A DNA stretch of 18,233 nucleotides from a virus. Taxonomy: Duplodnaviria > Heunggongvirae > Uroviricota > Caudoviricetes. The notes below the pieces were generated by a model, which saw only the letters and a program-made list of their open reading frames with translations, was not told the DNA's origin and did no database searches. Made by a program: the position numbers and the translations under genes. Shown here piece by piece: positions 2,104-18,233 of the stretch. The stretch lies in IMG/VR virus record IMGVR_UViG_2734482771_000002; one strand, written 5' to 3'. How positions within the stretch are numbered: position 1 is the first letter of the stretch; every line of letters starts with the position of its first letter.

Positions 2104-4675
2104 ACCGGTAGGCGATCTGGTCGTTGATTTGAGTCTGGATGCGGCCAGATTTGACGAGCAGATGGCCAGAGTCAGGCGTCATTTTTCCGGTACGGAAACT
2201 GATGCGAAAAAAACAGCGGCAGTCGTTGAACAGTCGATGAACCGGCAGGCGCTGGCTGCACAGAAAGCGGGAATTTCCGTCGGGCAGTATAAAGCCGCCA
2301 TGCGTATGCTGCCTGCGCAGTTCACCGACGTGGCCACGCAGCTTGCAGGCGGGCAAAGTCCGTGGCTGATCCTGCTGCAACAGGGGGGTCAGGTGAAGGA
2401 CTCCTTCGGCGGGATGATCCCCATGTTCCGGGGGCTTGCCGGTGCGATCACCCTGCCGATGGTGGGGGCCACCTCGCTGGCGGTGGCGACCGGTGCGCTG
2501 GCGTATGCCTGGTATCAGGGCAACTCAACCCTGTCCGATTTCAACAAAACGCTGGTCCTTTCCGGCAATCAGGCGGGACTGACGGCAGATCGTATGCTGG
2601 TCCTGTCCAGAGCCGGGCAGGCGGCAGGGCTGACGTTTAACCAGACCAGCGAGTCACTGACGGCGCTGGTGAATGCCGGTGTGCGTGGTGGTGAGCAGTT
2701 TGAGGCGATCAGCCAGAGTGTGGCGCGTTTCTCCTCTGCATCCGGCGTGGAGGTGGACAAGGTCGCTGAAGCCTTCGGGAAGCTGACCACAGACCCGACG
2801 TCGGGACTGACAGCGATGGCACGTCAGTTCCATAACGTGACGGCGGAGCAGATTGCGTATGTTGCTCAGTTGCAGCGTTCCGGAGATGAAGCCGGGGCAT
2901 TGCAGGCGGCGAACGAGGCCGCAACGAAAGGGTTTGATGACCAGACCCGCCGCCTGAAAGAGAACATGGGCACGCTGGAGACCTGGGCAGACAGGACAGC
3001 ACGGGCATTCAAATCCATGTGGGATTCGGTGCTGGATATTGGTCGCCCGGACACTGCCCAGGGAATGCTGGAGAAAGCAGAAAAGGCTTTTGATGAGGCG
3101 GACAAAAAATGGCAGTGGTATCAGAGCCGGAGCCACCGGCGCGGTAAAACCTCAGCATTTCTTGCCAATCTCCGGGGAGCATGGGAGGACAGAGCGAATG
3201 CGCAACTTGGGCTTTCAGCCGCCACGTTGCAGGCCGATCTTGAAAAGGCCAGAGAGATGGCAGCAAAGGACTGGGTCGAGTCTGAGGCATCACGGCTGAA
3301 ATATACCGAAGAGGCGCAGAAGGCTTACGAACGCCTGCAGACGCCGCTGGAGAAATATACCGCCCGTCAGGAAGAACTGAATAAGGCACTGAAAGACGGG
3401 AAAATCCTGCAGGCAGATTACAACACGCTGATGGCGGCAGCGAAAAAGGATTATGAAGCGACGCTGAAAAAGCCGAAGCAGTCCGGCGTGAAAGTGTCTG
3501 CAGGCGATCGCCAGGAAGACAGTGCTCATGCTGCCCTGCTGACGCTTCAGGCAGAACTCCGGACGCTGGAGAAGCATGCCGGAGCGAATGAGAAAATCAG
3601 CCAGCAGCGCCGGGATTTGTGGAAGGCGGAGAGTCAGTTCGCTGTACTGGAGGAGGCGGCACAACGTCGCCAGCTGTCCGCACAGGAGAAATCCCTGCTG
3701 GCGCATAAAGATGAGACGCTGGAGTACAAACGCCAGCTGGCTGCACTTGGCGACAAGGTTACGTATCAGGAGCGCCTGAACGCGCTGGCGCAGCAGGCGG
3801 ATAAATTCGCACAGCAGCAACGGGCAAAACGGGCCGCCATTGATGCGAAAAACCGGGGGCTGACTGACCGGCAGGCAGCGCGGGAAGCCACAGAACAGCG
3901 TCTGAAGGAACAGTATGGCGATAATCCGCTGGCGCTGAATAACGTCATGTCAGAGCAGAAAAAGACCTGGACGGCTGAAGACCAGCTTCGCGGGAGCTGG
4001 ATGGCAGGCCTGAAGTCCGGCTGGAGTGAGTGGGAAGAGAGCGCCACGGACAGTATGTCGCAGGTTAAAAGTGCAGCCACGCAGACCTTTGATGGTATTG
4101 CGCAGAATATGGCGGCGATGCTGACCGGCAGTGAGCAGAACTGGCGCAGCTTCACCCGTTCCGTGCTGTCCATGATGACAGAAATTCTGCTTAAGCAGGC
4201 AATGGTGGGGATTGTCGGGAGTATCGGTAGCGCCATTGGCGGGGCTGTTGGTGGCGGCGCATCCGCATCAGGCGGTACAGCCATTCAGGCAGCTGCGGCG
4301 AAATTCCATTTTGCGACCGGAGGATTTACGGGAACCGGCGGCAAATATGAGCCAGCGGGGATTGTTCACCGTGGTGAATTTGTCTTCACGAAGGAGGCAA
4401 CCAGCCGGATTGGTGTCGGCAACCTGTACCGCCTGATGCGGGGCTATGCGGAAGGTGGTTATGTGGGCGGTGCCGGAAGTCCGGCGCAGATGCGGCGGGC
4501 TGAAGGCATTAATTTTAATCAGAACAATCACGTGGTGATTCAGAACGACGGTACGAATGGTCTGCCAGGTCCACAGATGATGAAGGCAGTGTATGACATG
4601 GCCCGCAAGGGTGCCCGTGATGAAATTCAGGCACAGATGCGCGATGGTGGTCTGTTCTCCGGAGGTGGACGATGA
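2096..4675 (+). CDS. H: Tail tape measure protein H
   Basis: 859-aa ORF MAEPVGDLVVDLSLDAARFDEQMARVRRHF..., coiled-coil-rich centre and Gly-rich hydrophobic C-terminal segment; lambda gpH-like. ATG at 2096 overlaps the T stop, and the H stop overlaps the M start (ATGA at 4672-4675). Confidence 0.92.
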   Translation: MAEPVGDLVVDLSLDAARFDEQMARVRRHFSGTETDAKKTAAVVEQSMNRQALAAQKAGISVGQYKAAMRMLPAQFTDVATQLAGGQSPWLILLQQGGQVKDSFGGMIPMFRGLAGAITLPMVGATSLAVATGALAYAWYQGNSTLSDFNKTLVLSGNQAGLTADRMLVLSRAGQAAGLTFNQTSESLTALVNAGVRGGEQFEAISQSVARFSSASGVEVDKVAEAFGKLTTDPTSGLTAMARQFHNVTAEQIAYVAQLQRSGDEAGALQAANEAATKGFDDQTRRLKENMGTLETWADRTARAFKSMWDSVLDIGRPDTAQGMLEKAEKAFDEADKKWQWYQSRSHRRGKTSAFLANLRGAWEDRANAQLGLSAATLQADLEKAREMAAKDWVESEASRLKYTEEAQKAYERLQTPLEKYTARQEELNKALKDGKILQADYNTLMAAAKKDYEATLKKPKQSGVKVSAGDRQEDSAHAALLTLQAELRTLEKHAGANEKISQQRRDLWKAESQFAVLEEAAQRRQLSAQEKSLLAHKDETLEYKRQLAALGDKVTYQERLNALAQQADKFAQQQRAKRAAIDAKNRGLTDRQAAREATEQRLKEQYGDNPLALNNVMSEQKKTWTAEDQLRGSWMAGLKSGWSEWEESATDSMSQVKSAATQTFDGIAQNMAAMLTGSEQNWRSFTRSVLSMMTEILLKQAMVGIVGSIGSAIGGAVGGGASASGGTAIQAAAAKFHFATGGFTGTGGKYEPAGIVHRGEFVFTKEATSRIGVGNLYRLMRGYAEGGYVGGAGSPAQMRRAEGINFNQNNHVVIQNDGTNGLPGPQMMKAVYDMARKGARDEIQAQMRDGGLFSGGGR

Positions 4676-5001
4676 AGACCTTCCGCTGGAAAGTGAAACC
4701 CGGTATGGATGTGGCTTCGGCCCCTTCCGTCAGGAAAGTGCGCTTTGGTGATGGCTATTCCCAGCGAGCGCCTGCCGGGCTGAATGCCGACCTGAAAACG
4801 TACAGCGTGACGCTTTCTGTTCCCCGTTGGGAGGCCACGGCGCTGGAGTCGTTTCTGGCTGAGCACGGGGGCTGGAAAGCCTTTCTGTGGACGCCGCCTT
4901 ATGAGTGGCGGCAGATAAAGGTGACCTGCGCAAAATGGTCGTCGCGGGTCAGTATGCTGCGTGTTGAGTTCAGCGCAGAGTTTGAACAGGTGGTGAACTG
5001 A
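4672..5001 (+). CDS. M: Minor tail protein M
   Basis: 109-aa ORF MKTFRWKVKPGMDVASAPSVRKVRFGDGYSQRAPAGLNADLKTYSVTLSVPRWEA... matching lambda gpM; translationally coupled to H and L. Confidence 0.9.
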   Translation: MKTFRWKVKPGMDVASAPSVRKVRFGDGYSQRAPAGLNADLKTYSVTLSVPRWEATALESFLAEHGGWKAFLWTPPYEWRQIKVTCAKWSSRVSMLRVEFSAEFEQVVN

Positions 5002-7047: not shown

Positions 7048-10000
7048 ATGGGTAAAGGAAGCAGTAAGGGGCATACTCCGCGCGAAGCGAAGGACAACCT
7101 GAAGTCCACGCAGTTGCTGAGTGTGATCGATGCCATCAGCGAAGGGCCGATTGAAGGTCCGGTGGATGGCTTAAAAAGCGTGCTGCTGAACAGTACGCCG
7201 GTGCTGGACAGTGAGGGGAATACCATTATCTCCGGCGTCACGGTGGTGTTCCGGGCCGGTGAGCAGGAGCAGACTCCGCCGGAGGGATTTGAATCCTCCA
7301 GCTCCGAGACAGTGTTGGGTACGGAAGTGAAATACGACACGCCGATCACCCGCGCCATCACGTCGGCAAACATCGACCGACTGCGCTTTACCTTCGGTGT
7401 GCAGGCACTGGTGGAAACCACCTCAAAGGGGGACCGGAATCCGTCGGAAGTTCGCCTGCTGGTTCAGATACAGCGTAATGGTGGCTGGGTGACGGAAAAA
7501 GACATCACCATTAAGGGCAAAACCACCTCGCAGTATCTGGCCTCGGTGGTGGTGGATAACCTGCCGCCGCGCCCGTTTAATATCCGGATGCGCAGAATGA
7601 CGCCGGACAGCACCACAGACCAGCTGCAGAACAAAACGCTCTGGTCGTCATACACCGAAATCATCGATGTGAAACAGTGCTACCCGAACACGGCACTGGT
7701 CGGCGTACAGGTGGATTCGGAGCAGTTCGGCAGCCAGCAGGTGAGCCGTAATTATCATCTGCGCGGGCGTATTCTGCAGGTGCCGTCGAATTATAACCCG
7801 CAGACGCGGCAATACAGCGGTATCTGGGACGGAACGTTTAAACCGGCATACAGCAACAACATGGCCTGGTGTCTGTGGGATATGCTGACCCACCCGCGCT
7901 ACGGCATGGGGAAACGTCTTGGTGCGGCAGATGTGGATAAATGGGCGCTGTATGTCATCGGCCAGTACTGCGACCAGTCGGTGCCGGACGGCTTTGGCAG
8001 CACGGAGCCGCGCATCACCTGTAATGCCTGGCTGACCACACAGCGCAAGGCGTGGGATGTGCTCAGTGATTTCTGCTCGGCGATGCGCTGTATGCCGGTA
8101 TGGAACGGGCAGACGCTGACGTTCGTGCAGGACCGACCGTCGGATAAGGTGTGGACCTATAACCGCAGTAATGTGGTGATGCCGGATGATGGCGCGCCGT
8201 TCCGCTACAGCTTCAGCGCCCTGAAGGACCGCCATAATGCCGTTGAGGTGAACTGGATTGACCCGGATAACGGCTGGGAGACGGCGACAGAGCTTGTGGA
8301 GGACACGCAGGCCATTGCCCGTTACGGTCGTAATGTCACGAAGATGGATGCCTTTGGCTGTACCAGCCGGGGGCAGGCACACCGAGCCGGGCTGTGGCTG
8401 ATTAAAACGGAGCTGCTGGAAACGCAGACCGTGGATTTCAGCGTCGGCGCAGAAGGGCTTCGCCATGTACCGGGCGATGTTATTGAAATCTGTGATGATG
8501 ACTATGCCGGTATCAGCACCGGTGGTCGTGTGCTGGCGGTGAACAGCCTGACCCGGACGCTGACGCTTGACCGTGAAATCACGCTGCCATCCTCCGGTAC
8601 CACGCTGATAAGCCTGGTTGACGGAAGTGGCAATCCGGTCAGCGTGGAGGTTCAGTCCGTCACCGACGGCGTGAAGGTGAAAGTGAGCCGTGTTCCTGAC
8701 GGTGTTGCTGAATACAGCGTATGGGGGCTGAAGCTGCCGAGGCTGCGCCAGCGACTGTTCCGCTGCGTGAGTATCCGTGAGAACGACGACGGCACGTATG
8801 CCATCACCGCCGTGCAGCATGTGCCGGAAAAAGAGGTCATCGTGGATAACGGGGCGCACTTTGACGGCGAACAGAGTGGCACGGTGAACGGTGTCACGCC
8901 GCCAGCGGTGCAGCACCTGACCGCAGAAGTCACTGCAGACAGCGGGGAATACCAGGTGCTGGCCCGCTGGGACACGCCGAAGGTGGTGAAGGGCGTGAGC
9001 TTCCTGCTTCGCCTGACCGTGGCAGCGGATGACGGCAGTGAGCGGCTGGTCAGCACGGCCCGGACGACGGAAACCACTTACCGCTTCACACAACTGGCTC
9101 TGGGGAACTACAGGCTGACAGTCCGGGCAGTAAATGCGTGGGGGCAGCAGGGCGATCCGGCGTCGGTATCGTTCCGGATTGCCGCACCGGCAGCGCCGTC
9201 GCGGATTGAGCTGACGCCGGGCTATTTTCAGATAACCGCCACGCCGCATCTTGCGGTTTATGATCCGACGGTACAGTTTGAGTTCTGGTTCTCGGAAAAG
9301 CGGATTGCGGATATCAGGCAGGTTGAAACCACAGCACGCTATCTTGGCACGGCGCTGTACTGGATAGCCGCCAGTATCAATATCAGGCCGGGCCATAATT
9401 ATTATTTTTACGTTCGCAGTGTGAACACCGTTGGCAAATCGGCATTCGTGGAGGCTGTTGGTCAGCCGAGTGATGACGCATCCGGCTATCTGGATTTTTT
9501 CAAAGGCGAGATAGGGAAAACCCATCTGGCTCAGGAGCTGTGGACGCAGATTGATAACGGTCAGCTTGCGCCTGACCTGGCTGAAATCAGGACATCCATT
9601 ACGGATGTCAGCAATGAAATCACACAGACCGTCAATAAGAAACTGGAAGACCAGAGTGCAGCGATCCAGCAGATACAGAAGGTTCAGGTTGATACAAATA
9701 ATAATCTGAACAGCATGTGGGCTGTGAAGCTGCAGCAGATGCAGGACGGACGCCTTTATATTGCGGGTATCGGTGCCGGTATTGAGAACACCCCCGACGG
9801 CATGCAGAGTCAGGTGCTGCTGGCGGCAGACAGGATTGCGATGATTAATCCTGCAAATGGCAACACAAAACCGATGTTTGTTGGTCAGGGTGATCAGATA
9901 TTCATGAATGAAGTGTTCCTGAAATATCTGACGGCTCCCACCATTACCAGCGGCGGTAATCCTCCTGCATTTTCCCTGACACCGGACGGAAAGCTGACCG

Positions 10001-10545
10001 CTAAAAATGCGGATATCAGTGGCAGTGTGAATGCGAACGCCGGGACGCTCAACAATGTCACGGTAAATGAAAACTGTACAATTAAGGGCATGCTGGAGGC
10101 GACCCAGGTCAGAGGGGATTTCGTTAAAGCTGTATCAAAAGCCTTCCCGAAAAAAGTCGGTACGTGGGGTAACACGGAAACACCAAACGGTACGGTTACA
10201 GTCACCATCAGCGATGATCATAACTTTGACCGCCAGATTATTATTCCGCCCATTATTTTTAACGGTATAGCGTATGACGATCCGGGGAGCGGAAATAACC
10301 CGGGAGGCACGCGATACACGGGTTATGGTTTTGAAGTTCGCAAAAACGGCGTATTAATCGCATCCAGAGAAACTAAAGGGGCCATTCCCGGTAGTTACAG
10401 TGCAGTTATTGATATGCCTAGTGGTGGTGGTAGCGTCACTCTGGAGTTTAAGATTTTCCAGAAAGGCAATCAGGGGGCAGGCAATATCACCGACTGTACG
10501 GTGATTGTGACCAAAAAAGCGGCTTCCGGCATCAGTATTCGTTGA
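7048..10545 (+). CDS. J: Central tail fibre / host specificity protein J (tip attachment protein)
   Basis: 1165-aa [57 protein letters not shown]..., lambda gpJ-like over most of its length (fibronectin III-like repeats); the last few hundred residues appear divergent from lambda J as I recall it. Confidence 0.92.
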
Positions 10546-10614: not shown

Positions 10615-11214
10615 ATGCGTAAACTTTATGCCGCCATTTTGTCCGCAGCCATTTGTCTGGCCGTATCCGGTGCGCCTGCATGGGCATCTGAACATCAGTC
10701 CACGCTGAGCGCGGGGTATCTTCATGCCTCGACGAACGTTCCCGGCAGCGATGATCTTAACGGGATTAACGTGAAATACCGTTATGAGTTTACGGACACA
10801 CTGGGGCTGGTGACGTCATTCAGCTATGCAGGAGACAAGAATCGCCAGCTTACCCGTTACAGCGATACCCGCTGGCATGAAGATTCCGTGCGTAACCGCT
10901 GGTTCAGCGTGATGGTGGGGCCGTCTGTGCGCGTGAATGAATGGTTCAGCGCGTATGCGATGGCGGGTATGGCTTACAGCCGTGTGTCGACTTTCTCCGG
11001 GGATTATCTCCGCGTAACTGACAACAAGGGGAAAACGCACGACGTGCTGACCGGAAGTGATGACGGTCGCCACAGCAACACGTCTCTGGCGTGGGGAGCT
11101 GGCGTGCAGTTTAACCCGACCGAATCCGTGGCCATTGATATTGCTTATGAAGGCTCCGGCAGTGGCGACTGGCGCACTGACGGTTTCATCGTGGGTGTCG
11201 GTTATAAGTTCTGA
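10615..11214 (+). CDS. lom: Lom-family outer membrane protein (Ail/Lom/OmpX/PagC beta-barrel family)
   Basis: 199-aa ORF with a signal peptide ([24 protein letters not shown]) and the Lom-type C-terminus ...[29 protein letters not shown]; RBS GAGAGG upstream; located between J and stf as in lambda. Confidence 0.85.
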
Positions 11215-11240
11215 TTAGCCAGGTAACACAGTGTTATGAC

Positions 11241-11268
11241 AGCCCGCCTGTTCAGGCGGGCTTTTTTG
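11241..11268 (+). terminator. Rho-independent terminator downstream of lom
   Basis: AGCCCGCC-TGTTCA-GGCGGGCT perfect 8-bp stem (11241-11262) followed by TTTTTTG. Confidence 0.65.
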
Positions 11269-11278
11269 TGGGGTGAAT

Positions 11279-14200
11279 ATGGCAGTAAAGATTTCAGGTG
11301 TACTGAAAGACGGCACAGGAAAACCGGTACAGAACTGCACAATCCAGCTGAAAGCAAAACGTAACAGCACCGCGGTGGTGGTGAACACGCTGGCCTCAGA
11401 AAATCCGGATGAAGCCGGGCGTTACAGCATGGACGTTGAGTACGGTCAGTACAGCGTTATTCTGTTGGTGGAAGGATTCCCGCCGTCACATGCCGGGACC
11501 ATCACCGTGTATGAAGATTCCCGACCCGGTACGCTGAATGATTTTCTCGGTGCCATGACGGAGGATGATGCCCGTCCGGAGGCTCTGCGCCGTTTTGAAC
11601 TGATGGTGGAAGAGGTGGCGCGTAACGCGTCCGCGGTGGCACAGAACACGGCAGCCGCGAAGAAGTCAGCCGGCGATGCCGGCACATCTGCCCGTGAGGC
11701 GGCAACCCATGCGACTGATGCTGCAGGCTCAGCACGCGCAGCCAGCACGTCAGCCGGACAGGCCGCTTCGTCGGCTCAGTCAGCGTCTTCCAGCGCAGGA
11801 ACGGCATCAACAAAGGCCACTGAAGCGGAAAAAAGTGCTGCCGCTGCAGAGTCCTCAAAAAGCGCGGCAGCTACCAGTGCCAGTGCCGCGAAAACGTCAG
11901 AAACGAATGCTGCAGCGTCACAACAATCAGCAGCCACTTCTGCATCCACCGCGACTACGAAAGCGTCAGAAGCTGCCACCTCAGCCCGGGATGCGTCGGC
12001 TTCAAAAGAGGCGGCAAAATCATCAGAAACGAACGCATCCTCGAGCGCCAGTAGCGCAGCTTCCTCGGCAACGGCGGCAGCAAATTCCGCGAAGGCGGCA
12101 AAAACGTCCGAGACGAACGCCAGGTCTTCTGAGACGGCAGCGGGACAGAGCGCCTCAGCTGCGGCAGGCTCAAAAACAGCGGCTGCGTCGTCTGCCAGTG
12201 CCGCGTCAACAAGTGCCGGGCAGGCCTCAGCCAGTGCCATCGCCGCCGGAAAATCGGCAGAAAGCGCCGCATCATCCGCTTCAACAGCCACAACGAAGGC
12301 TGGCGAAGCCACTGAACAGGCCAGCGCAGCAGCGAGGTCAGCTTCCGCAGCGAAGACATCCGAAACGAACGCGAAAGCGTCGGAAACCAGCGCAGAATCC
12401 TCAAAAACGGCTGCCGCATCGTCCGCCAGTTCGGCGGCGTCATCGGCCTCATCGGCGTCTGCTTCAAAAGATGAGGCGACCAGACAAGCGTCAGCAGCGA
12501 AGGGCAGCGCCACGACGGCATCCACGAAGGCAACAGAGGCTGCTGGCAGTGCGACGGCGGCAGCACAGAGCAAGAGTACGGCAGAATCCGCAGCAACGCG
12601 CGCCGAGACAGCAGCAAAACGGGCAGAGGATATTGCATCCGCTGTGGCGCTTGAGGATGCGAGCACGACGAAAAAGGGGATAGTACAGCTCAGTAGTGCG
12701 ACTAACAGCACTTCCGAGTCACTGGCGGCAACACCAAAAGCCGTTAAGGCCGCGTATGACCTGGCTAACGGGAAATACACCGCACAGGATGCAACGACAG
12801 CACAGAAAGGGATAATCCAGCTAAGCAGCGCGACCAACAGCACGTCTGAAACGCTTGCCGCGACACCAAAGGCAGTAAAAACAGCCTATGACAATGCTGA
12901 GAAACGTCTGCAGAAAGATCAGAACGGTGCGGATATCCCTGGCAAAGACACCTTTACGAAAAATATTGGTGCCTGCCGTGCCTTTGGTGGGTCAGTAAGC
13001 ACAATAACAGGAAACTGGACGACTGCACAGTTTATCGAGTGGCTGGATTCTCAGGGAGCATTTAACCATCCCTACTGGATGTGCAAGGGGTCCTGGTCTT
13101 ATGGCAATAATAAAATCATTACTGATACTGACTGCGGTAATATTCATCTCGCCGGAGCTGTCATTGAAGTAATGGGGATAAAGTCAGCGATGACGATCCG
13201 CATTACCACACCGACCACCTCCACTGGTGGTGGAACAACTAACGCCCAGTTTACCTATATTAATCACGGAACAGATTATTCACCTGGCTGGCGAAGGGAC
13301 TATAACTCCAGAAATAAGCCAACGGCATCAGAGATCGGGGCGTTACCGTCAGGTGGAACAGCAGTATCATCAGTTAATCTGTCTTCAAAAGGTCGGGTAA
13401 CCGCGCTGACAGACAATACGCAGGGGGCAACAGGTCTTGAGTTATACGAGGTGTATAACAACGGATATCCAACAGCGTATGGAAATATCATTCACCTGAA
13501 AGGGATGACAGCCGTTGGCGAAGGTGAGTTACTCATCGGCTGGAGTGGTACAAGCGGTGCTCATGCTCCGGCATTTATTCGTTCACGACGGGATACGACC
13601 GACGCAAACTGGTCGCCGTGGGCGCAGCTTTACACCTCGGCTCATCCTCCTGCAGAGTTTTATCCAGTCGGTGCACCAATCCCGTGGCCATCAGATACCG
13701 TTCCGTCTGGCTATGCCCTGATGCAGGGGCAGACTTTTGACAAATCTGCATACCCGAAACTTGCAGCGGCTTATCCGTCAGGCGTGATCCCTGATATGCG
13801 TGGCTGGACGATTAAGGGCAAACCTGCCAGTGGTCGGGCCGTATTGTCTCAGGAACAGGACGGCATTAAATCGCATACCCACAGCGCCAGCGCATCCAGT
13901 ACGGATTTGGGGACGAAAACCACATCGTCGTTTGATTACGGCACTAAATCCACGAATAACACTGGTGCGCATACCCATAGTTTAAGTGGCAGCACGAATG
14001 CAGCTGGTAATCACAGCCATAGAGATGGCCGTCGATTTAACCCCAGTGTTTTTAAAGATACTTATCAATATGGTTATACAAGCTCAGGTCAAAATACCTG
14101 GGGTGTACAAGGCTCAGTAGGTATGTCTACGGGGTGGTTAGCTAATACCAGTACAGATGGTAATCATAGCCACTCACTGTCCGGCACAGCAGCATCTGCA

Positions 14201-14350
14201 GGTGCACACGCGCATACTGTCGGTATTGGTGCTCATACGCACTCCGTTGCGATTGGTTCACATGGACACACCATCACCGTTAACGCTGCTGGTAACGCGG
14301 AAAACACCGTCAAAAACATCGCATTTAACTATATTGTGAGGCTTGCATAA
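11279..14350 (+). CDS. stf: Side tail fibre protein Stf
   Basis: ORF beginning [30 protein letters not shown]... (ATG 11279; the supplied track starts at the in-frame GTG 11273). It has a long Ala/Ser/Thr-rich low-complexity shaft, duplicated KGI(V/I)[11 protein letters not shown](S/T)LAATPKAVK motifs, and a His-rich C-terminus ([43 protein letters not shown]) of the lambda Stf / T4 gp37 type. Its stop overlaps the tfa start (TAATG). Confidence 0.85.
12674..12892 (+). repeat. Duplicated 29-codon motif inside stf (copies 12674-12760 and 12806-12892, separated by 45 nt)
   Basis: Both copies encode KGI(V/I)[11 protein letters not shown](S/T)LAATPKAVK(A/T)AYD; the nucleotide sequences differ at many synonymous positions while the peptides are nearly identical. 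Confidence 0.8.
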
Positions 14351-14925
14351 TGGCATTCAGAATGAGTGAACAACCACGGACCATAAAAATTTATAATCTG
14401 CTGGCCGGAACTAATGAATTTATTGGTGAAGGTGATGCATATATTCCGCCTCATACAGGTCTGCCAGCAAACAGTACCGATATTGCACCGCCAGATATTC
14501 CGGCTGGCTTCGTGGCTGTTTTCAACAGTGATGAGTCATCGTGGCATCTCGTTGAAGATCATCGGGGTAAAACGGTTTATGACGTGGCTTCCGGCGACGC
14601 GTTATTTATTTCTGAACTCGGTCCGTTACCGGAAAATGTTACCTGGTTATCGCCGGAAGGGGAGTTTCAGAAGTGGAACGGCACAGCCTGGGTGAAGGAT
14701 ACGGAAGCAGAAAAACTGTTCCGGATCCGGGAGGCGGAAGAAACAAAAAACAACCTGATGCAGGTAGCCAGTGAGCATATTGCGCCGCTTCAGGATGCTG
14801 CAGATCTGGAAATTGCAACGGAGGAAGAAATCTCGTTGCTGGAAGCATGGAAAAAGTATCGGGTATTGCTGAACCGTGTTGATACGTCAACTGCACAGGA
14901 TATTGAATGGCCAGCACTGCCGTAG
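14350..14925 (+). CDS. tfa: Tail fibre assembly protein Tfa
   Basis: 191-aa [82 protein letters not shown]... matching lambda Tfa; immediately follows stf. Confidence 0.88.
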
Positions 14926-15022
14926 GGTAAAACATATAAATTCTATAATTAGATGTATCTTTCCATTTACGGCAAGGAAGGGGGCTTGGAAGACGTAAAG
15001 CATCTCACACCGAGATTATTTT

Positions 15023-15613
15023 TTATATGTCAGGTGTCTGAAGTTTTGCTTTGGCTCTTAAAATGGTTTGCCGCGAGGTTTTGAATTCCCGGGCAATGGC
15101 ACTTATACTTACACCTGACTTAATTCGTTCGAATACCACCTGTTTCTGTTCTTCATTTAACACAGGTGGTCGACCAAAACGTTTCCCTGCGCCGCGGGCT
15201 CTTACTATCCCGGAATGAGTGCGTTCAAGTAAAAGGTCTCGTTCAAATTCAGCGACTGCTGAAATTACTTGCATCATCATTTTTCCTGTTGGACTGGTCA
15301 GGTCAATGCCACCCAATGCTAAGCAATGCACTCTGATACCTGTTTCGGTCAGTTGTTCCACTGTTTTCCTGATATCCATTGCATTACAACCAAGGCGATC
15401 CAGTTTTGTCACAATCAATTGATCACCACATTTCAGGCGAGCAAGCAACCGGTTAAAACCAGGACGCTCACTGGTTGCTGCTGAGCCGCTAATGTGTTCT
15501 TCGATTATTTGCTGAGGTTTGATTTTAAAACCTGCACTTTCGATTTCCCGGCGTTGATTTTCGGTGGTCTGATCCAGCGTTGATATCCGACAGTAAGCAA
15601 AAATTCGAGACAT
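15023..15613 (-). CDS. pin: Serine recombinase, Pin/Gin/Hin-family DNA invertase
   Basis: 196-aa [32 protein letters not shown]... with the resolvase/invertase N-terminal catalytic-serine motif (YCRISTLDQ) and a C-terminal HTH ([22 protein letters not shown]). Convergent with tfa, as in the Rac/Qin/e14 arrangement. Confidence 0.88.
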
Positions 15614-15929
15614 AGTGAGACTCTATACGAAATTGGTGTTCATATCATAATGCATCTCAGAAAATAATTATGATTATTTTTGTGCATATTTGTATGTACA
15701 CGTTCGAAAATAAACGAATGCGTATGCAACCCCGTAATTTTGGTGAGACCCAAAATCGATTTTGTGAAAAATGGCTTTAACTCGGTTTGTTTTTCGAGTT
15801 CCGGGCGGACTCAAGGAAGAAGAATAGTGTTGCGTGTTATTTTAACCAGATTTCAAGTTGTTTGGTCGTGGAAAAGTGGAGCAAAATGTTGTTAAAGTGG
15901 AAAAATGATAAAAAAGTAAGTTTATTATA

Positions 15930-16163
15930 TTACATTTTACCATTTAAATTTTGGTTGTCTTTAAGAACTGATATCGCTGTTTGTAATAATTCTTTGTTAT
16001 CCAGCCATGATTTTTTCTTTATGTTTCCTTCAATGTAATCAAGCAATGTTCTGGTATTGATAGGTCTTCCCTGTTTTGCTACTTCCACTACAGCATCCCC
16101 TAGGATAATTCTTACTTCAGGAAGCTGCGCAGGGAACCACTTTAGGGTGTCTTTTGATTTCAT
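15930..16163 (-). CDS. ydfK: Small YdfK/YnaE-like protein (DUF1398-type, cold-shock-associated prophage gene)
   Basis: Minus-strand ORF; the supplied 88-aa version (to 16196) starts MKINNILRNIFMKSKDTLKW..., while the internal Met gives a 77-aa product MKSKDTLKWFPAQLPEVRIILGDAVVEVAKQGRPINTRTLLDYIEGNIKKKSWLDNKELLQTAISVLKDNQNLNGKM. The call rests mainly on synteny (pin-ydfK-ydfJ as in the K-12 Qin end) and size; the start codon is uncertain. Confidence 0.6.
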   Translation of the reverse strand: MKSKDTLKWFPAQLPEVRIILGDAVVEVAKQGRPINTRTLLDYIEGNIKKKSWLDNKELLQTAISVLKDNQNLNGKM

Positions 16164-16667
16164 GAAGATATTCCTTAAAATATTATTGATTTTCATTGCG
16201 ATATTGTATGTCTGATTCAGGATATGTTGACTTATACATCGGTTTTGTCTGGGTTATTGGATATGCCAATCCCTAATTTTATTAGGGCATGACTAAAAAT
16301 GCTGAATATGATAAGGAGAGATGTGATTATCAGTATGCTGTTCATATAGCCTCGAATTAGTAATGTGTTATATATGATATAGTTGACAATTTTTATCTTG
16401 GGTGTTCTTAAAGTTCGTAGATAAACATTGTCGTTTCAGGTATACAGGAATGCTAACAGGTGGCAGCAAAAATCAGGCGGTTTATGGCGCAAGCTGAAGC
16501 GGCAACTGTAAACTATCTTATGCAGAGACTCTACACGGATTGGGTTTAAAAGTATACATAGATAACAGTTTTTATCTGAAAAAGAAAAATATCAAGGTGA
16601 TATAGCCTATATGCCTTTGATGCGGAGGAATGAATGTGATGGGAGTGATGTATCTGAATAGTTGAAA

Positions 16668-16705
16668 AACCGCAGACACGCCTTATGCAAGAACGTGCTG
16701 CGGTT
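16668..16705 (-). terminator. Strong hairpin, terminator-like when read on the minus strand
   Basis: AACCGCAG-A-CACG [13-nt loop] CGTG-CTGCGGTT (12 bp of stem with one bulge). On the minus strand the hairpin runs directly into a TTTTT tract (complement of the A-run at 16665-16669); on the plus strand no immediate T-run follows. Confidence 0.4.
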
Positions 16706-16949
16706 GGCTGGTAAATTTTTCGATAGTGTGAGTATTGAATGATTTCCAGCCGTTCTTGATTTTACGCATAAATCCATGAAAAAACTACTTATCTGTTGGG
16801 GAGTTTTTTTTGGGGCATATATGGGACAGAAATAGGCCCCAGATAGACACTGAGATCGAACTTAGGATGCTTTTTAAAAAATGCAACTATCTGAAAAAAC
16901 CTAGAAAACGCCAAGGAAACCACAGGATGGGAAAAAACACCTGTGAATT

Positions 16950-18233
16950 ATGGATTTCCAGTTATATTCGCTCGGCGCAGCGTTAGTGTTTCATGAAATA
17001 TTTTTTCCTGAATCATCAACGGCAATGGCGTTAATTCTGGCAATGGGAACCTATGGTGCAGGTTATGTGGCGCGTATTGTCGGAGCATTTATTTTCGGCA
17101 AAATGGGCGACAGAATAGGGCGTAAAAAAGTGCTCTTTATTACCATCACCATGATGGGGATCTGTACCACCTTAATTGGAGTGTTACCGACCTATGCACA
17201 GATTGGTGTTTTTGCACCCATCTTGCTGGTGACGCTGCGTATTATTCAGGGATTGGGTGCAGGTGCGGAAATTTCCGGTGCCGGTACGATGCTGGCGGAA
17301 TATGCGCCAAAAGGTAAGCGCGGAATTATCTCCTCATTTGTGGCTATGGGAACTAACTGCGGAACCTTAAGCGCAACGGCAATCTGGGCCTTTATGTTCT
17401 TCATTCTCAGTAAAGAGGAACTGCTGGCGTGGGGATGGCGTATACCGTTCCTGGCGAGCGTTGTCGTGATGGTCTTTGCTATCTGGTTGCGTATGAATCT
17501 GAAAGAAAGCCCGGTCTTTGAGAAGGTTAACGACAGCAACCAACCGACAGCAAAACCTGCACCTGCTGGTAGCATGTTCCAGAGCAAATCCTTCTGGCTG
17601 GCAACAGGGCTGCGTTTTGGTCAGGCGGGTAACTCCGGTTTAATTCAGACTTTCCTTGCAGGCTATTTAGTACAGACGTTATTGTTTAACAAAGCAATTC
17701 CAACAGATGCATTGATGATCAGTTCGATTCTCGGCTTTATGACCATTCCGTTCCTTGGTTGGTTATCCGATAAAATTGGTCGCCGGATCCCGTATATTAT
17801 TATGAATACCTCTGCGATTGTGCTGGCGTGGCCAATGCTTTCTATCATCGTAGATAAAAGCTATGCCCCGAGCACCATTATGGTTGCACTGATTGTGATT
17901 CATAACTGTGCGGTGCTGGGATTATTTGCTCTGGAAAACATTACCATGGCAGAAATGTTCGGCTGTAAAAACCGCTTTACCCGGATGGCTATTTCAAAAG
18001 AAATTGGTGGTCTTATCGCTTCCGGTTTTGGTCCTATCCTGGCGGGTATTTTCTGCACCATGACGGAATCCTGGTATCCGATCGCCATTATGATCATGGC
18101 ATATTCAGTAATTGGTTTAATCTCTGCGCTGAAAATGCCAGAGGTGAAAGACCGTGATTTAAGTGCGCTGGAAGACGCTGCGGAAGATCAACCGCGTGTT
18201 GTAAGAGCTGCGCAACCTTCCAGAAGTCTGTAA
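16950..18233 (+). CDS. ydfJ: MFS transporter of the metabolite:H+ symporter type (YdfJ-like), apparently 5'-truncated
   Basis: 427-aa ORF MDFQLYSLGAALVFHEIFFPESSTAMALILAMGTYGAGYVARIVGAFIFGKMGDRIGRKKVLFITITM... with many hydrophobic helices. Its first residues align to the conserved (E)WYDF.LYG...FFP box that in ProP/ShiA-type transporters sits about 25-35 residues from the N-terminus, so the true N-terminus appears missing. In-frame stop at 16944-16946 just upstream; stop at 18231-18233. Confidence 0.8.
   Translation: MDFQLYSLGAALVFHEIFFPESSTAMALILAMGTYGAGYVARIVGAFIFGKMGDRIGRKKVLFITITMMGICTTLIGVLPTYAQIGVFAPILLVTLRIIQGLGAGAEISGAGTMLAEYAPKGKRGIISSFVAMGTNCGTLSATAIWAFMFFILSKEELLAWGWRIPFLASVVVMVFAIWLRMNLKESPVFEKVNDSNQPTAKPAPAGSMFQSKSFWLATGLRFGQAGNSGLIQTFLAGYLVQTLLFNKAIPTDALMISSILGFMTIPFLGWLSDKIGRRIPYIIMNTSAIVLAWPMLSIIVDKSYAPSTIMVALIVIHNCAVLGLFALENITMAEMFGCKNRFTRMAISKEIGGLIASGFGPILAGIFCTMTESWYPIAIMIMAYSVIGLISALKMPEVKDRDLSALEDAAEDQPRVVRAAQPSRSL

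Follow-up and report, generated by a model that had tools for sequence, protein, structure and literature searches.

Patchwork of the kind described here has been known in phage tail fibres for decades, and the mosaic structure of this particular fibre is already known. The HxH motifs of T4 gp37 are reported to hold seven iron ions, and motifs of this type are also reported for lambda (PMC11705849). The C-terminus of lambda Stf has been modelled on the gp37 tip structure 2XGF, and Stf binds OmpC (PMC7291167). Foreign fibre parts have also been joined to the lambda protein by design, at residues 393 and 528, in engineered lambda-P2 and lambda-K5 STF chimeras (Brodel et al., 2024, PMC11338833).

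The window, i.e., the whole stretch of 18,233 nt that was analysed, contains an open reading frame on the + strand spanning 11273/11279-14350. According to its translation, the start equivalent to that of lambda is the ATG at 11279, giving an Stf of 1023 residues plus the stop codon. The ORF map and the Pfam matches (J domains, Ail_Lom, Caudo_TAP) give the gene order J-lom-stf-tfaQ-pinQ, with J, lom, stf, tfa and a serine recombinase arranged as in the lambdoid tail module of lambda. These genes belong to an intact lambdoid prophage of the Qin type that occupies ydfJ of E. coli, and the matching chromosomal region is annotated in E. coli as tfaQ-pinQ-ydfK-ynfT-ydfJ. The stf DNA is 99.5% identical to the tail fibre gene of phage mEp460, and this level of identity spans stf, tfa and the invertase gene. 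The expectation of the initial annotation that stf is followed by its chaperone gene is borne out: tfa lies directly 3' of stf, overlaps its stop codon by one base, and encodes a cognate Tfa that is 95% identical to that of lambda. The invertase gene (pinQ), of the Pin/Gin/Cin family, lies 97 bp 3' of tfa on the opposite strand and matches Pfam Resolvase and HTH_7 as well as the PHROG 'DNA invertase' (E = 2e-68). The features of stf and tfa are the following:

11279-14350, + strand: stf, a stfQ-type side tail fibre gene (Pfam phage_tail_N, Phage_fiber_2, Collar)
11279-11680, + strand: N-terminal tail-attachment domain, aa 1-134 (PF08400, E = 2.8e-71), collinear with lambda Stf
11681-12658, + strand: Ala/Ser-rich repetitive shaft, aa 135-460, with direct repeat families D1-D9, longer than that of lambda
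12659-12913, + strand: two Phage_fiber_2 repeats, aa ~461-545 (PF03406, E = 6.6e-38, two stretches)
12914-13318, + strand: cassette block A and linker, aa 546-680, a conserved globular shaft domain of the P2 gpH/Mu S'/P1 S' type
13319-13660, + strand: cassette block B, aa 681-794, a second shaft segment, P1 S'/S-like, with the right junction at its end
13661-13873, + strand: Collar domain of the gp37-type tip, aa 795-865 (PF07484, E = 6.7e-12)
13874-14020, + strand: first half of the needle, aa 866-914, HxH motifs 1-3 (aa 866, 898 and 912)
14021-14164, + strand: hypervariable head region, aa 915-962, between HxH motifs 3 and 4, where T4 gp37 932-965 aligns
14165-14347, + strand: second half of the needle, aa 963-1023, HxH motifs 4-7 (aa 963, 977, 986 and 995)
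14350-14925, + strand: tfa, the tail fibre assembly chaperone gene (Pfam PF02413, Caudo_TAP, E = 3.6e-43), named tfaQ in E. coli genomes

The proximal part of the fibre is of lambda type: residues 1-352 share 81% identity with lambda Stf, with additional repeat copies here, and residues 1-94 match PDB 9e7m ('Tail fiber protein', E = 6e-51). The initial annotation had pointed to a distal segment as apparently absent from lambda Stf. This agrees with BLASTP against the 774-aa lambda protein, in which residues 1-545 and 795-1023 are collinear and residues 546-794 give no alignment, and with the lambda DNA homology, which stops at nt 12879 and restarts at 13670; the collinearity that had been named as evidence to the contrary does not extend across this stretch. 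The low-GC peptide noted after a duplicated motif is found at residues 564-633, just past the two Phage_fiber_2 copies, and ends in AVIEVMG. The description of the domain as inserted has to be revised to a replacement, in which a cassette of 249 aa (nt 12914-13660) stands in place of lambda residues 396-529 (134 aa). The sequence comparison shows a module exchange relative to lambda, and the Phage_fiber_2 region is a conserved linker that contains the left recombination junction. Because collinearity with lambda Stf is not full-length, the protein is classed as a mosaic variant of lambda-type Stf; mosaic variants are usual in this family. The exchange may have gone in either direction, with either arrangement ancestral.

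The cassette belongs to the P2 gpH/Mu S'/P1 S' fibre family. P2 DNA homology covers nt 12654-13326, and block A and its linker share 78-88% identity with P2 H (residues 342-476), Mu S'v (25-161) and P1 S'v (229-362). In tblastn, P2 H is 54% identical over residues 368-791 and Mu S' 49% identical over residues 538-792, and these matches stop at residues 787-792. The structure of the Mu tail fibre S' (PDB 8ju3) matches the cassette with E = 7.5e-85 and is the sole match (probability 1.00) of an AF2 monomer model of the cassette in a Foldseek search of the PDB. This model has a mean pLDDT of 59.8 and is confident only for residues ~579-679, and the fold of block B is therefore not established. 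Block B shares 65% identity with residues 59-165 of P1 S'v; the block order in P1 is B-A, and P1 carries two DNA copies of block B. The sole match of the cassette alone against Pfam is a weak one, of block B to Gp34_trimer (20.4 bits, below the cutoff of 27). Block A is globular and compact, and some of its Trp, Tyr and Cys residues are invariant; two of its cysteines, C602 and C619, are nearly invariant. Toward its 3' end, block B shares 99.6% identity with the Qin remnant of K-12. Of 5426 complete E. coli genomes, 800 contain at least 80% of the cassette, and 1600 E. coli genomes have a match. In phage Kati, a tip that is 100% identical is combined with a different middle cassette (~350 aa, junctions at 12939 and 13629). 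Among close relatives, cassette and tip assort independently.

Distal to the cassette, residues 794-1023 match chain residues 28-242 of PDB 2xgf, the T4 gp37 tip (E = 1.9e-84), and the resemblance to gp37-type fibres proposed earlier is upheld. The 67-71% identity to 2xgf already fixes the predicted fold of the tip, whose Pfam matches are to the Collar and the Phage_fiber repeat. Identity to lambda Stf is 71% over the whole tip. By segment, identities to lambda and T4 gp37, respectively, are 90 and 84% in the Collar (gp37 813-882), 90 and 82% in the first half of the needle, and 93 and 79% in the second half (gp37 966-1026). Repeated HxH motifs are present at the C-terminus as reported, although they number seven, not six (KSHTHS had been missed). 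They comprise all 14 histidines of the tip, and they align one-to-one with those of T4 gp37, all 14 being invariant columns; motifs 1-3 are invariant in lambda as well. When the tip sequence was shuffled 100,000 times, seven motifs were never reached (mean 0.79, maximum 6). The implication that such a tip is unusual does not hold: lambda Stf has the same tip, and the HxH motifs are normal lambda Stf anatomy. Within the tip only the head (aa 915-962) is divergent; its local identities of 28% to lambda and 35% to T4 are not significant. The T4-like phage P896 carries the same head variant with 90.5% identity.

Homologies, junctions and motif conservation are direct observations. The stretch singled out by the initial annotation makes up the distal half of an ordinary side tail fibre gene of lambda type. 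Taken together, Stf is very probably a natural mosaic of known modules, consisting of a lambda part, a two-block cassette acting as a spacer, and a lambda/T4 gp37-type tip. Metal binding, receptor contact by the head and the spacer role of the cassette are inferred by homology. In the proposed mechanism, three chains would fold starting at the C-terminus, aided by Tfa, and the HxH pairs of the three chains would form seven stacked His6 sites; octahedral binding of Fe2+, for which the literature on the homologous tips also argues, would stiffen the needle. The variable head loops at the extreme end, probably the receptor-contact part, would then touch the host surface receptor, which in the T4 and lambda relatives is OmpC or LPS; the head here is a different variant. 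The cassette would be a trimeric spacer or knob that sets the length and geometry of the fibre and not its specificity. Its exchange came about by recombination in conserved flanking sequence, with the Phage_fiber_2 repeat at the left end and the pre-collar sequence at the right.

The composition of the region could suggest that the cassette alone was acquired recently from a donor genome of lower GC. The Ala/Ser-rich repeats (nt 11681-12658) have a GC of 0.62, after which the value drops to 0.49 in nt 12914-13660; it is 0.53 in the whole window, and the GC3 of the cassette (0.46) is below the 0.61-0.66 of J, lom and the N-terminus of Stf. However, such an acquisition is unlikely: the lambda-homologous tip (0.44) and tfa (0.45) are equally low in GC3, lambda's own segments have values of 0.49 (aa 396-529), 0.49 (tip) and 0.46 (tfa), and GC3 steps down after aa 134 in both phages, not at the cassette junction. 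Overall GC likewise does not recover beyond the cassette (tip 0.50, tfa 0.48, pinQ 0.45). Much of the contrast stems from upstream GCN codons; the high GC there reflects Ala/Ser codons, with a GC2 of 0.80. The AT-richer segment of the initial annotation is thus real as a drop in GC but is not specific to the cassette, and the GC3 comparison with the lambda segments rules out GC as a marker of an insert.

A second alternative is that the cassette itself binds a receptor and sets or adds host specificity, for instance as a lateral LPS-binding knob, as in the earlier proposal of a swapped-in receptor-binding module. The swap relative to lambda is real, the homologues in Mu and P1 form part of the variable, host-range-switching S'v regions, and the compact fold of block A with its invariant residues also speaks for this reading. 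The receptor-binding part of the proposal nevertheless appears quite improbable. A complete gp37-type collar-needle-head tip lies distal to the cassette, and Mu S', P2 H and P1 S' likewise have 78 to more than 170 further C-terminal residues beyond the homologous part. Block A is the best-conserved piece of these three fibres, whose tips differ, and the head is hypervariable, which is the opposite of what is expected if the cassette determined specificity; moreover, Kati combines the identical tip with another cassette. A contribution of the cassette to specificity is formally conceivable, given that the homologous blocks of Mu and P1 lie inside invertible segments that switch host range. Block A (aa 579-680), which is very strongly conserved among lambdoid, P2, Mu and P1 fibres, could provide a second, lateral binding site for a conserved surface structure, e.g., the LPS inner core; this is very improbable, and if true it would make the fibre bivalent, combining a conserved low-affinity contact with a variable head.

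Finally, a host-range switch of the Mu G/P1 C/e14 P type that contains the cassette and is actively inverted by the adjacent PinQ might be suspected from the nearby Pin/Gin/Cin-family gene and from the location of the cassette homologues in the Mu and P1 invertible segments, but it is extremely improbable and is rejected because a search of the window for invertase crossover sites gave no gix/hix/cix-type site in or near stf, tfa or pinQ. A gix/cix-like core (AAACCNNGGTTT, up to 2 mismatches) does not occur between 11000 and 16200, and the place where Mu has its gix site is not a site here. Long inverted repeats are absent from 11000-16900, where only short, imperfect pairs consistent with chance occur, and neither the interval from tfa to pinQ nor the sequence beyond it carries another tfa' or stf' C-terminus in inverted orientation.

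The locus shows, in clean form, a tail-fibre cassette exchange that took place in nature. It is of little importance beyond annotation and makes no open question newly testable. The exchange took place at lambda residues ~393 and ~528, the junctions that engineers used to retarget lambda particles. This may help in choosing fusion points and in predicting which part, the head (aa 915-962), determines host range.

Compared with known systems, the fibre shares features with each of several relatives. The K-12 Qin remnant (stfQ-tfaQ-pinQ-ydfK) has the same ydfJ locus and the same tfaQ-pinQ-ydfK-ynfT neighbours, but there the cassette survives only in its 3' part, which starts at approximately nt 13398 and lies beside nohA; the tail genes in the window are intact. 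With lambda (Ur-lambda) Stf/Tfa the fibre shares the J-lom-stf-tfa order, the N-terminal domain, the Ala/Ser-rich shaft, the Phage_fiber_2 motif and the collar-needle tip (90-93% identity in collar and needle). In contrast to lambda, the Ala/Ser-rich repeats are longer, there is one additional Phage_fiber_2 copy, and Stf has seven HxH motifs instead of eight; lambda residues 396-529 are unrelated to the cassette, and the head regions are unrelated as well. The T4 gp37 tip (2xgf) is similar in collar and needle (79-84% identity) with seven HxH motifs in register; however, the head between motifs 3 and 4 has ~46 aa here and 32 in T4 and is unrelated. The tip is borne by a side fibre of a siphovirus, and the chaperone is Tfa rather than gp38. 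Mu S' (gp52, 8ju3), P2 gpH and P1 S' share the upstream Phage_fiber_2 linker with this Stf, whereas this fibre lacks the C-terminal tips and the U or G chaperones that are particular to them. The carrier also differs, being a lambdoid siphovirus, and the blocks are ordered A-B instead of the B-A of P1 and are not flanked by gix/cix sites. The engineered chimeras of Brodel et al. (2024, PMC11338833) are joined at the same two points that bound the natural cassette. These chimeras, however, replace everything distal, including the tip, whereas the natural fibre has a foreign segment only in its middle and retains a tip of the lambda/T4 type.

The window shows an intact lambdoid prophage of the Qin type where it meets the host chromosome, because the lambda-type tail genes stand in canonical order, phage mEp460_ev081 is 99.5% identical across stf-tfa-recombinase, and the right part of the window carries, in complete E. 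coli genomes, the annotation tfaQ-pinQ-ydfK-ynfT and then a ydfJ truncated at its N-terminus. Several further lambdoid phages match the stf-tfa-recombinase stretch at 97-98% identity. Since ydfJ lacks its N-terminus in the annotation of other genomes, the prophage sits in ydfJ, as does Qin of K-12. The prophage-host junction lies at 15600-18233, and within it ydfK and ynfT have a GC of only 0.32-0.36. The ORF antisense to J is probably an artefact of a GC-rich coding strand with few stops, and GCN-rich repeats within stf give rise to long spurious ORFs in further frames and on the minus strand, for instance the two listed below.

Tail genes, invertase, host gene and additional ORFs in the window
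7048-10545: J
7648-9525, (-): 625-aa ORF antisense to J
10615-11214: lom
11273/11279-14350, (+): stf, long ORF
11676-12683, plus: spurious ORF, 335 aa
11776-12843, minus: spurious ORF, 355 aa
14350-14925: tfa
15023-15613, (-), opposite strand, 97 bp downstream of tfa: pinQ, serine recombinase gene (Pin/Gin/Cin-family DNA invertase)
16950-18233, (+): ORF of ydfJ, host MFS transporter gene

In a protein alignment with the full-length 774-aa lambda Stf, residues 1-545 align to lambda 1 to about 395, with additional Ala/Ser-rich repeats in the window protein and Phage_fiber_2 in duplicate, and residues 795-1023 (the tip) align to lambda 530-774 with 71% identity. Residues 546-794 (nt 12914-13660, hereafter the cassette) gave no alignment to lambda 396-529, and lambda DNA homology stops at nt 12879 and restarts at 13670. 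The unaligned residues and this break point to a module exchanged relative to lambda, with 249 aa where lambda has 134 aa. Collinearity over the whole region, named as what would refute the initial annotation, is therefore not seen: it fails at the cassette and holds in the tip. The peptide quoted there is present in Stf, and both copies of the Phage_fiber_2 motif were found upstream of it. The Ala/Ser-rich repeat shaft (11681-12913) is ~105 aa longer than that of lambda.

GC is 0.62 in the Ala/Ser-rich repeats and 0.49 in nt 12914-13660, so the reported drop is real, but it is neither unusual nor cassette-specific, since the tip, tfa and the lambda segments are similar in GC3.

GC3 per segment, window and equivalent lambda segment (lambda values for the Stf segments and tfa)
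J: window 0.66
lom: window 0.62
Stf N-terminal domain: window 0.61, lambda 0.63
Ala/Ser-rich repeats: window 0.51, lambda 0.46
Phage_fiber_2: window 0.55, lambda 0.56
Cassette: window 0.46, lambda (aa 396-529) 0.49
Tip: window 0.44, lambda 0.49
tfa: window 0.45, lambda 0.46
pinQ: window 0.36

In both phages GC3 declines over the entire distal stf-tfa stretch, and the sharp contrast at nt 12900 is mainly due to upstream Ala/Ser codons rich in GCN (GC2 0.80); the cassette thus does not stand out by composition.

Among solved structures, a sequence search matches the cassette to tail fibre S' of Mu (PDB 8ju3, E 7.5e-85), with ~75% identity over a 158-residue stretch. DNA and tblastn comparisons relate it to P2 gpH, Mu S'v and both variable parts of P1 S. 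The linker plus block A (aa 546-680) is 78-88% identical to P2 H 342-476, Mu S'v 25-161 and P1 S'v 229-362, and block B (aa 681-794) is 65% identical to P1 S'v 59-165 and shows no significant local similarity to P2 or Mu in the block-by-block comparison. P1 has block B ahead of block A, the reverse of the window order; the sub-blocks themselves have thus been shuffled, beyond exchange of the whole cassette. The P1 S'v stretch in question (3255-4847 of the P1 sequence) reads B-A vs A-B in window 12914-13660; a second block B copy occurs in the opposite arm of the P1 C segment. The AF2 model is confident for aa about 579-679 only, a compact alpha/beta domain; Foldseek returned 8ju3 as sole match, and Pfam gave a sub-threshold Gp34_trimer match alone. 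Block A carries two cysteines, C602 and C619 (nt 13082-13135), nearly invariant in an alignment of 25 homologues, which could form a structural disulfide or metal site in a conserved knob domain; a third, C566, is in the linker. The cassette is widespread: among 5426 complete E. coli genomes, 800 carry at least 80% of it at high identity. In K-12, the Qin remnant has only the 3' 272 nt of the cassette (13398-13669, 99.6% identical) abutting nohA, so that the deletion in K-12 ends within block B of stfQ.

A Pin/Gin/Cin-type invertase gene adjoins the fibre gene, and the Mu G and P1 C segments contain relatives of the cassette, which suggested an invertible switch. However, no crossover-site core occurs anywhere in 11000-16200, the position equivalent to Mu gix holds no site, and neither an alternative fibre end nor a chaperone gene lies inverted at the locus. 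PinQ appears to be without a target at stf-tfa; as this locus has neither detectable crossover sites nor an alternative fibre cassette, PinQ is seemingly an orphan invertase.

The tip (aa 794-1023) matches the T4 gp37 receptor-binding tip crystal structure (PDB 2xgf, E 1.9e-84). Seven HxH motifs (aa 866, 898, 912, 963, 977, 986, 995), one more than initially listed, account for every one of the 14 histidines in the C-terminal 229 residues, a count reached in 0 of 100,000 tip shuffles, and are invariant between Stf and T4 in a four-way alignment. In T4 gp37, HxH pairs coordinate seven iron ions, and such motifs have also been reported in lambda (PMC11705849), whose Stf C-terminus has been modelled on 2XGF and whose Stf is reported to bind OmpC (PMC7291167). 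The 2xgf match, the HxH register and the downstream tfa bear out a gp37-type tip followed by its chaperone gene; Tfa is 95% identical to that of lambda. The tip is not unusual, as had been implied, because lambda Stf has the same anatomy with eight HxH motifs. The collar (795-865) and needle halves (866-914, 963-1023) share 79-93% identity with T4 and lambda, and the head (915-962), between HxH 3 and 4 and aligned opposite T4 gp37 residues 932-965, has no significant similarity to either. Part of a tail fibre gene of P896, a 170-kb T4-like phage, encodes this head variant at 90.5% identity (window 13991-14185, aa 905-969), so that, judged by its sequence relatives, the head looks like a unit exchanged by itself between lambdoid and T-even phages. 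In other matching phages the variant is at 41% identity or less.

Judged by homology, the most likely mode of action is that folding of the three chains would start at the C-terminus, assisted by Tfa, that seven His6 metal sites formed by the HxH pairs would rigidify the needle, and that the variable head would contact the presumed receptor; the cassette would act passively as a trimeric spacer or knob. The alternative, that the swapped-in cassette is, as first proposed, the receptor-binding module and determines specificity, is argued against by its position proximal to a complete tip, by block A being the most conserved part among fibres with different tips while the head is hypervariable, and by phage Kati, in which a 100% identical tip follows a different cassette of ~350 aa (junctions 12939 and 13629).

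That lambda, T4, P2, Mu and P1 have mosaic tail fibres is a classical finding, reportedly described by Haggard-Ljungquist et al. in 1992 and by Sandmeier in 1994. The exact stf gene is already known from sequenced phages and hundreds of E. coli genomes. The natural cassette junctions coincide with the fusion points of engineered lambda STF chimeras, at lambda aa 393 and 528 (PMC11338833).
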